Part shown: positions 22,590 through 23,411 of the stretch, piece by piece
Layout: every line of letters starts with the position of its first letter
How positions within the stretch are numbered: position 1 is the stretch's first letter
Assembly (NCBI RefSeq): GCF_000027125.1
Contig: NC_017626.1
Origin: Escherichia coli 042
GTDB taxonomy: Bacteria; Pseudomonadota; Gammaproteobacteria; Enterobacterales; Enterobacteriaceae
Reading direction: 5' to 3' (one strand)
Length of the DNA stretch: 64,000 bases
The notes under the pieces: generated by a model
Seen by the model: only the letters and a program-made list of their open reading frames with translations
The model's database searches: none
What the model was told of the DNA's origin: nothing
Translations under genes and position numbers: made by a program

Positions 22590-23411
22590 ATGGGCGTCGT
22601 TAAGTTAGCTGATTACAGGCCTCAACTGGAGGTCGTGGAGCATCGCGTGGCAGATACCGAAGATGGTTTCATGCGCGTTGCTAACGAGATTACCGACAGT
22701 CTGCTGATGGCTGATTTAACCGTCCGGCAGTTGAAGGTGATGCTCGCTATCATGCGCAAGACATACGGATTCAATAAGCCGATGGATCGACTCACAAACA
22801 CGCAGATAGCAGCCATGACAGGTATTCATCACACTCATGTTTGCGCTGCCAAGCGCCAGCTTATTGAGCGTAAATTCCTCATTGCTGATGGCGTGAAAAT
22901 CGGAGTGAACAAGGTGGTTTCGCAGTGGATTAGCCAGGACAGCTTAACATTAGCTAAAACAGCTAATAAAACATTAGCCGAGTCGGCTAATTGGTATAAG
23001 CCAAGTCAGCTAAACACAAAAGACAATATACAAAAGACAATAAATACAAATACCCCCTTACCCCCTAACGGGGGCGGCGATGGGCAGGTTAAACCTGAAC
23101 GTCGCAAGGCAGAACGAATCGACTACGAATCCTTCCTGAACGCCTACAACACCGAAGTCGGTGACAGACTGCCGCACGCTGTTGCGGTCAACGAGAAACG
23201 CAAACGCCGCCTGAAGAAAATCATCCCGCAACTGAAAACGCCAAACGTGGACGGTTTCAGAGCGTATGTCAGGGCGTTTGTGCATCAGGCCAAGCCGTTT
23301 TACTTCGGAGACAACGACACGGGCTGGACGGCAGATTTTGATTACCTGCTGAGGGAAGATTCGTTAACGGGAGTTCGGGAAGGGAAGTTTGCAGACAGGG
23401 GGATTGCATGA
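22590..23411 (+). CDS. O: Replication initiator O-like protein
   Basis: 273 aa; N-terminal [27 protein letters not shown] pattern as in lambda O; ori-like iterons inside the coding region. Confidence 0.8.
22925..23045. other. Candidate origin of replication (iterons plus AT-rich tract) inside O
   Basis: Repeated TTAGC(C/T)/AGCTAA motifs at 22930, 22950, 22961, 22975, 22985 (inverted) and 23009, then AT-rich tract with direct repeat CAAAAGACAATA x2 (23017-23028, 23031-23042). Confidence 0.5.

Follow-up and report, generated by a model that had tools for sequence, protein, structure and literature searches.

A probable theta-replication origin of the HK97/ST104 type within the O initiator gene of a lambdoid prophage

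Introduction

The closest described counterparts of the element reported here are the replication origins of phages lambda and P22. The lambda O protein binds four iterons of roughly 20 bp in the central part of gene O, and gene 18 of P22 carries four different repeats, also of roughly 20 bp (PMC8022706). ori-lambda has been defined as four iterons of 18 bp together with an AT-rich sequence of 38 bp (PMC3349717). O footprints on the iterons, and the AT tract as the site of unwinding, have been described, and binding to iterons has been demonstrated for the O proteins of lambda, P27 and 933W (PMC7466680). In the sequence records, the lambda iterons are annotated at 39034, 39054, 39078 and 39101 (39034-39118 altogether) in an origin extending from 39034 to 39160, and the P22-pbi record (AF527608) places a rep_origin at 32840-32984 in gene 18 on the basis of "homology with phage lambda". 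The origin-recognition homologue of HK97 and ST104 has been described as very different from the ES18 type, and such proteins have been assigned predicted specificity classes (PMC2629481); a footnote in the same paper on residues 74-113 of an HK97 homologue was set aside, as a tie to O could not be made. The HK97 and Nil2 records that we inspected annotate the O gene without a rep_origin feature, and our literature search found no biochemical or genetic test of an origin of the HK97/ST104/Nil2 type.

Theta-replicating plasmids with iteron origins (RepA, pi, TrfA) have initiator-binding repeats beside an AT-rich unwinding element and a winged-helix initiator, an arrangement that recurs at the present locus. 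In plasmids the iterons are directly repeated, are located outside the rep gene and are usually bound by monomers; DnaA boxes and handcuffing copy control typically accompany them. The sites described below are, in contrast, palindromes within the initiator gene, and there is no sign of comparable control. A paper concerning plasmid iterons (PMC6118388) was set aside as irrelevant.

Results

The window analysed is a 64-kb stretch of an E. coli-type chromosome carrying a prophage at the classical lambda attachment region (Table 1). The structural genes of this prophage (29700-43700; terminase, portal, capsid, tail sheath and tape measure) are 96-97% identical to those of the Shigella myoviruses SfI, SfII and SfIV and of E. 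coli phage vB_EcoM-689R6. Judged from its sequence, the prophage is a typical mosaic, combining myovirus-like structural genes with a lambdoid early region that includes an HK97-type O. A cI/cro pair and a CII-family gene lie upstream of O. An oop-like antisense RNA unit is also seen there on the minus strand (22373-22450), with a terminator-like hairpin consisting of a 14-pair stem and a T run (22405-22373, minus strand) and a 33-bp motif, ACTGGATCAATCCACAGGAGTAATTATGACAAA, at about 22418-22450, overlapping cII at its end and a 53-codon ORF (22442-22603) at its start. This motif has been described as the 5' region of pO/oop that is conserved among lambdoid phages (PMC3349717). The 53-codon ORF is the counterpart of HK97 gp53 and Nil2 ORF53. 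An Rfam search of positions 19000-27000 gave no matches, and Rfam yielded no family matching the oop-like unit.

Table 1. Positions, in the window, of the origin components and of neighbouring genes
Feature	Coordinates	Strand	Remarks
Hydratase gene	9417-11702		
Putative acyl-CoA thioester hydrolase gene	11771-13054		family includes pectinesterase PemB; presumably ybhC
Likely phage integrase gene	13189-14259		weak tyrosine-recombinase match
CII-family gene	22069-22407		upstream of O
O-family replication initiator gene	22590-23411	+	273 aa, contains the origin; Pfam Phage_rep_O, residues 19-113, E 5.6e-33
N-terminal origin-recognition domain of O	22644-22928	+	residues 19-113; predicted winged helix-turn-helix (AlphaFold2)
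Iteron 1	22929-22947		ATTAGCCAGGACAGCTTAA; two mismatches to ATTAGC-N7-GCTAAT; offset -86 relative to the AT-tract motif, matching lambda iteron 1
Iteron 2	22949-22967		ATTAGCTAAAACAGCTAAT; perfect arms; offset -66, as lambda iteron 2
Iteron 3	22973-22991		ATTAGCCGAGTCGGCTAAT; perfect 9+1+9 palindrome; offset -42, as lambda iteron 3
Iteron 4	22996-23014		ATAAGCCAAGTCAGCTAAA; two mismatches; offset -19, as lambda iteron 4; adjoins the AT tract
AT-rich tract, putative DNA-unwinding element	23015-23052		38 bp, 8 G/C (21% G+C); strong A bias on the + strand
G/C inverted repeat	23061-23074		CCCCC-TAAC-GGGGG; immediately right of the AT tract
C-terminal domain of O, putatively helicase-recruiting	23110-23408	+	about residues 175-273; AlphaFold2 fold at about 175-265
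DnaB-family replicative helicase gene	23408-24784	+	458 aa, P22 gene-12 type; DnaB_C E 9e-78, DnaB N-terminal domain E 4.5e-13
bioA	54567-55967		after the prophage
bioB	55943-56983		after the prophage
uvrB	60125-62146		after the prophage

The gene containing the repeats, already assigned to the O family in a preliminary description of this DNA, has a Pfam match (Table 1), and its product is 49% identical in amino acid sequence to P22 gp18 and 30% identical to lambda O. An AlphaFold2 model of the protein (29-sequence alignment, mean pLDDT 66) has folded parts at residues 30-112 and 175-265 with a low-confidence segment, 116-174, between them. The N-terminal domain is predicted to be a winged helix-turn-helix, helices 45-59, 70-77 and 81-93 being followed by a beta hairpin at 97-106 (strands 97-100 and 103-106), with pLDDT values of 62-89 over the block. 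In a Foldseek comparison with the PDB all matches were to winged-helix regulators (MarR, CRP/FNR), but they were weak (best E 1.1e-2); searching the PDB by sequence revealed no O homologue of known structure. The repeat-containing segment corresponds to codons 114-162 and thus falls in the low-confidence linker, which is predicted to be disordered. An antisense ORF of 75 codons is present on the minus strand within O (23058-23285); it has no sign of being a gene and probably represents the open frame commonly seen opposite coding sequence.

The start of the next gene overlaps the O stop codon. Pfam identifies the product as a phage-encoded helicase of the DnaB type, not a loader of the lambda P type, and it shares about 90% amino acid identity with P22 gp12; in HK97, Nil2 and P22 its counterparts carry the annotation DnaB analogue or replicative helicase. 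This differs from lambda, where the partner protein P hijacks the host DnaB. One of the IMG/VR loci compared below (L006) encodes an O protein with 100% identity to the one in the window, but the ORF after it, 667 aa long, is only 71% identical to the helicase; in another (L058), the ORF downstream of O has 646 aa and 24% identity. These ORFs could represent other helicase partners, or else an ORF-picking artefact.

The sequence comes from a chromosomal prophage and not from a phage isolate, and some relatives have broken O genes, such as L079 (frameshift) and L036 and L037 (truncated). One might accordingly suppose that the prophage is defective or its origin inactive, and that the repeats persist only by recent descent. 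We consider this very unlikely. The O and helicase ORFs are both intact and full-length, O is 99% identical in DNA sequence to the genes of the viable phages HK97, HK446, mEp213 and ST104, and the iteron arms are conserved across lineages whose N-terminal domains are down to 54-62% identical, which needs continuing selection.

The preliminary description had noted at least six copies of a TTAGC(C/T) motif inside O. Its presence is confirmed: with both strands counted, there are seven TTAGCY matches at 22930-23013, as against about 0.06 expected per 84 bp from the 46 matches in the whole window. The 6-mers themselves, however, are parts of a larger unit, a 19-bp imperfect palindrome with the consensus ATTAGC-N7-GCTAAT that is present in four copies, making eight half-sites (Table 1). 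The four iterons start at distances of 20, 24 and 23 bp from one another, about two helical turns. This anatomy and its exact positional match to lambda are directly observed.

Counting short words proved a poor measure of the significance of such a cluster. The density of TTAGC/GCTAA 5-mers (seven per 100 bp) was equalled somewhere in 8 of 100 first-order Markov sequences modelled on the window, so that it is not decisive. In the window itself, this naive scan gave a single further stretch with the density of the origin, an unrelated piece of coding sequence at 37801-37940 with seven CCGGA/TCCGG per 100 bp; it looks like ordinary non-repetitive sequence on inspection. Nor was there an excess of matches to ATTAGC-N7-GCTAAT with up to three mismatches across the window (26 observed, 26 expected); the informative signal lies only in the clustering of matches with two mismatches or fewer. 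A test that assumes no pattern gave a clear answer. Within the window, 19-mers that have three partners no more than 80 bp away, each with an identity of 14/19 or higher, occur only at 22949 and 22996, and a four-member family was found in none of 300 surrogates (at most one partner in 287, two partners in 13), from which it follows that the iteron family is not due to chance.

The interval given in the preliminary description, 22925-23045, takes in all the iterons but only most of the AT-rich tract, which abuts iteron 4 and continues to 23052. G+C content in 40-bp windows across 23000-23059 falls to 27.5-35%, compared with roughly 50% on both flanks. Like the AT-rich regions of lambda and P22, the tract opens with CACAAAAGACA (lambda, CACAAAAGACACTATTACAAAAGAAAAAAG; window, CACAAAAGACAATATACAAAAGACAATAAA). 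It contains a tandem 14-bp unit, ACAAAAGACAATA(T/A), at 23016-23043, and this includes the 12-mer that had been reported as a direct repeat, CAAAAGACAATA, at 23017-23028 and again at 23031-23042. The tract is unpaired in a single-strand fold, in which hairpins form at iterons 2 and 3 (z = -4.35).

These hairpins could be taken to suggest that the dyads serve mainly in some role other than initiation, as a site of O titration or autoregulation, or as a hairpin or cruciform read by host factors or defence systems. Reports that Lamassu and P2 OLD are enriched at lambda iterons during replication (PMC12663957; bioRxiv 10.64898/2026.07.10.737580) and that plasmid-borne ori-lambda iterons inhibit rep-lambda phages (PMC3349717) point in the same direction. 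In lambda, however, such effects are secondary consequences of an active origin, and the AT-rich tract and helicase gene that are conserved next to the dyads are what an origin requires and a titration site does not. A primarily non-initiating role seems even less probable than an inactive origin.

Interpretation of the segment as an origin is favoured by its comparison with known systems. As the preliminary description had proposed, the layout mirrors that of ori-lambda: in both cases the element lies inside an O-family gene, in the part coding for the inter-domain linker; both have four dyad-symmetric iterons of 18-19 bp with 20/24/23-bp spacing, and in both a 38-bp AT-rich tract adjoins iteron 4 and is followed by an inverted repeat. 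The likeness was, if anything, understated, since the iteron offsets are superimposable on those of lambda and the AT tract is homologous to the lambda and P22 tracts, beyond mere analogy. The repeat sequence, on the other hand, does differ as had been stated, the arms being ATTAGC..GCTAAT here, TCCCTC..GAGGGA in lambda and TTTACC..GGTAAA in P22. The N-terminal domain of lambda O is only about 30% identical overall to that of the window, and its C-terminal domain differs.

The gene 18/gene 12 module of P22 has the same architecture, including a DnaB-type helicase partner with overlapping stop and start codons. DNA identity reaches 89.6% over 23006-23099, and the AT tract and the first G/C run are the same, P22 being identical to the window over 23015-23065. 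The two modules diverge in their iterons and initiators: the N-terminal domains are about 39-40% and the C-terminal domains about 59% identical, and the origin specificity is not that of P22. In contrast, the O genes of HK97, HK446, mEp213, Nil2, ST104, SPN9CC and the Stx phages 1717, 2851 and Stx2a_F349 are 98.8-99.5% identical in DNA sequence to that of the window and contain the same element. Origin segments in the HK97 group are 97-99.5% identical (98.6-99.1% for HK97 and ST104), and their iterons differ by one or two bases in the centre of iteron 3. Many other O genes also show 98.8-99.5% identity to that of the window; of 5426 complete E. coli genomes, 714 carry the gene.

For a wider comparison, 80 IMG/VR loci encoding O relatives were chosen from more than 548 O homologues seen in that database; they represent about 60 distinct alleles. 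Their origins were aligned gap-free on CACAAAAGA, the opening motif of the AT tract, and the 19-mers at -86, -66, -42 and -19 were extracted. These offsets yield four iterons in every class examined except E. The arms define six classes: A, ATTAGC..GCTAAT (window, HK97); B, TTTACC..GGTAAA (P22); C, TCCCTC..GAGGGA (lambda); D, GTTACC..GGGAAC (L056, L061, L066); E, TTAGC..GCTAA with different spacing (L076, L078, L080); and F, TGTCAC..GTGACA (L074, L081, L083-L085). Arm sequence follows the N-terminal domain of O and not the C-terminal domain, shared ancestry and linkage among the roughly 60 alleles and six classes being uncorrected. Whenever the N-terminal domain was at least 54% identical to that of the window, the arms were of the TTAGC/GCTAA type, with C-terminal domains ranging from 42 to 100% identity; all of these alleles fall in class A at the lambda offsets except two class E loci. 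Natural hybrids (L042-L047, L049-L053) combine a P22-like N-terminal domain and P22 iterons with a C-terminal domain 96-100% and a helicase 90-100% identical to those of the window, which places the recombination joint at the shared AT tract. The co-variation of iterons with the N-terminal domain is thus a direct observation. Across the loci, helicase identity was correlated with that of the O C-terminal domain (Spearman 0.76) more than with that of the N-terminal domain (0.35), a difference confounded by physical linkage and one that adjacency alone could produce.

Divergence from the window was measured among 46 distinct class A sequences. It averaged 2.8% in the iteron arms, 14% in the iteron centres, 15% in the spacers between iterons and 7.6% in the AT tract. 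For comparison, the figure was 5.9% at codon position 2 of the folded N-terminal domain and 19-21% at codon position 3 of the folded domains. Arm bases at codon position 3 diverged by 1.7%. Purifying selection on the arms at the DNA level is evident from these values: since the arms are conserved far beyond synonymous sites (1.7% against about 20%), we conclude that the repeats are a selected DNA element. The concentration of selection on the two outer hexamers is the pattern expected of a dimer that would read two half-sites. That the repeats are instead the by-product of a peptide repeated in the O linker (such as LAKTAN/LAESAN), without function as DNA, is scarcely credible: iterons 2 and 3 do lie in the same frame, 24 bp apart, and encode the similar TLAKTAN and TLAESAN, but the four iterons occupy three frames (339, 359, 383 and 406 nt from the ATG), so that a peptide repeat is possible for one pair only, other specificity classes encode quite different peptides with the DNA geometry unchanged, the protein segment is a predicted disordered linker under low constraint, and the even spread of arm bases over the codon positions (16 each), together with the three frames, rules out a coding by-product and indicates selection on the DNA itself.

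Alignment of the N-terminal domains was searched for residues that might account for arm specificity. Among 94 aligned columns, T71, H80, H81 and H83 are the sole ones that are invariant in class A and absent from classes B, C, D and F. H80 and H83 are found again in class E, which alone among the other classes has TTAGC half-sites. This distribution would fit residues 80-83 as the start of the predicted recognition helix. These data raise the possibility, which we advance tentatively and hold to be rather less than an even chance, that residues 80-83 (H-H-T-H here), invariant within an iteron class and differing between classes with different arms, set origin specificity. If the rule were true, origin compatibility groups of lambdoid prophages would be predictable from four residues. 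The recurrence of His80 and His83 in L076, L078 and L080, otherwise P22-like, points to specificity having moved, or re-evolved, through the recognition helix alone. Four loci (L076, L077, L078, L080) have TTAGC..GCTAA half-sites in a P22-like N-domain background in which only the HHTH/HSTH start of the recognition helix is common with the class of the window. In three of them (L076, L077, L080) the gap between iterons 2 and 3 is longer by 15 bp, and additional copies seem to lie upstream.

Immediately to the right of the AT tract is a G/C inverted repeat (Table 1), partly entangled with Pro-Pro/Gly-Gly codons. In most alleles, including lambda, an inverted repeat occupies the interval from about +36 to +50 relative to the motif. 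Its position is kept but its sequence is not, other alleles having GTCATC/GATGAC, GTCAGAG/CTCTGAC or ATCCCCT/AGGGGAT, and it may contribute to origin function as well.

Discussion

Taken together, the iterons (22929-23014) and the adjoining AT tract are very probably where theta replication of a lambdoid prophage begins: an origin with specificity of the HK97/ST104 type, set into the stretch of the prophage's own initiator gene that encodes the linker. Some points count against this reading: iterons 1 and 4 are degenerate, with two mismatches each, the winged-helix match is weak and the P22 origin annotation itself derives from lambda homology.

From the homology with ori-lambda and the P22 18/12 module we infer O binding, DNA bending, unwinding, delivery of the helicase and the identity of the DNA-reading residues. 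O dimers would bind the four 19-bp dyads via the winged-helix N-terminal domain, each monomer reading one ATTAGC arm, probably through the H80-H81-T82-H83 start of the recognition helix. Four bound dimers, about two helical turns apart, would wrap and bend the DNA into an O-some which, on a supercoiled template, would destabilise the neighbouring 38-bp AT-rich tract. Through its C-terminal domain, O could then bring the phage's own DnaB-type helicase to the opened tract, in place of the complex of lambda P with host DnaB, and host primase and polymerase would start bidirectional replication.

The element is already known, in that its architecture is textbook and its sequence is in the public records of HK97, ST104 and several Shiga-toxin phages. 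What is gained is chiefly annotation: the prophage origin is fixed at 22929-23074, with an HK97/ST104 origin-specificity class and a P22-type helicase partner. The same class includes the Shiga-toxin phages 1717, 2851, Stx2a_F349 and Nil2, where toxin gene dosage is driven by replication. An exact origin position is also useful as the Lamassu and OLD defence systems were recently reported to sense lambdoid origins; current understanding is unchanged. Residual novelty, the analysis suggests, resides in the proposed recognition-helix rule and in the inverted repeat conserved in structure.

A last observation concerns the tandem repeat of the AT tract. In L079 (IMGVR_UViG_2909216862_000002, about 2300-2480), one of the two 14-bp units is missing. 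As 14 is not a multiple of 3, loss of the unit shifts the O frame, and the C-terminal part continues in another frame. Unless this reflects an assembly error in L079, the tandem repeat in the putative unwinding element would be a slippage site able to inactivate O.
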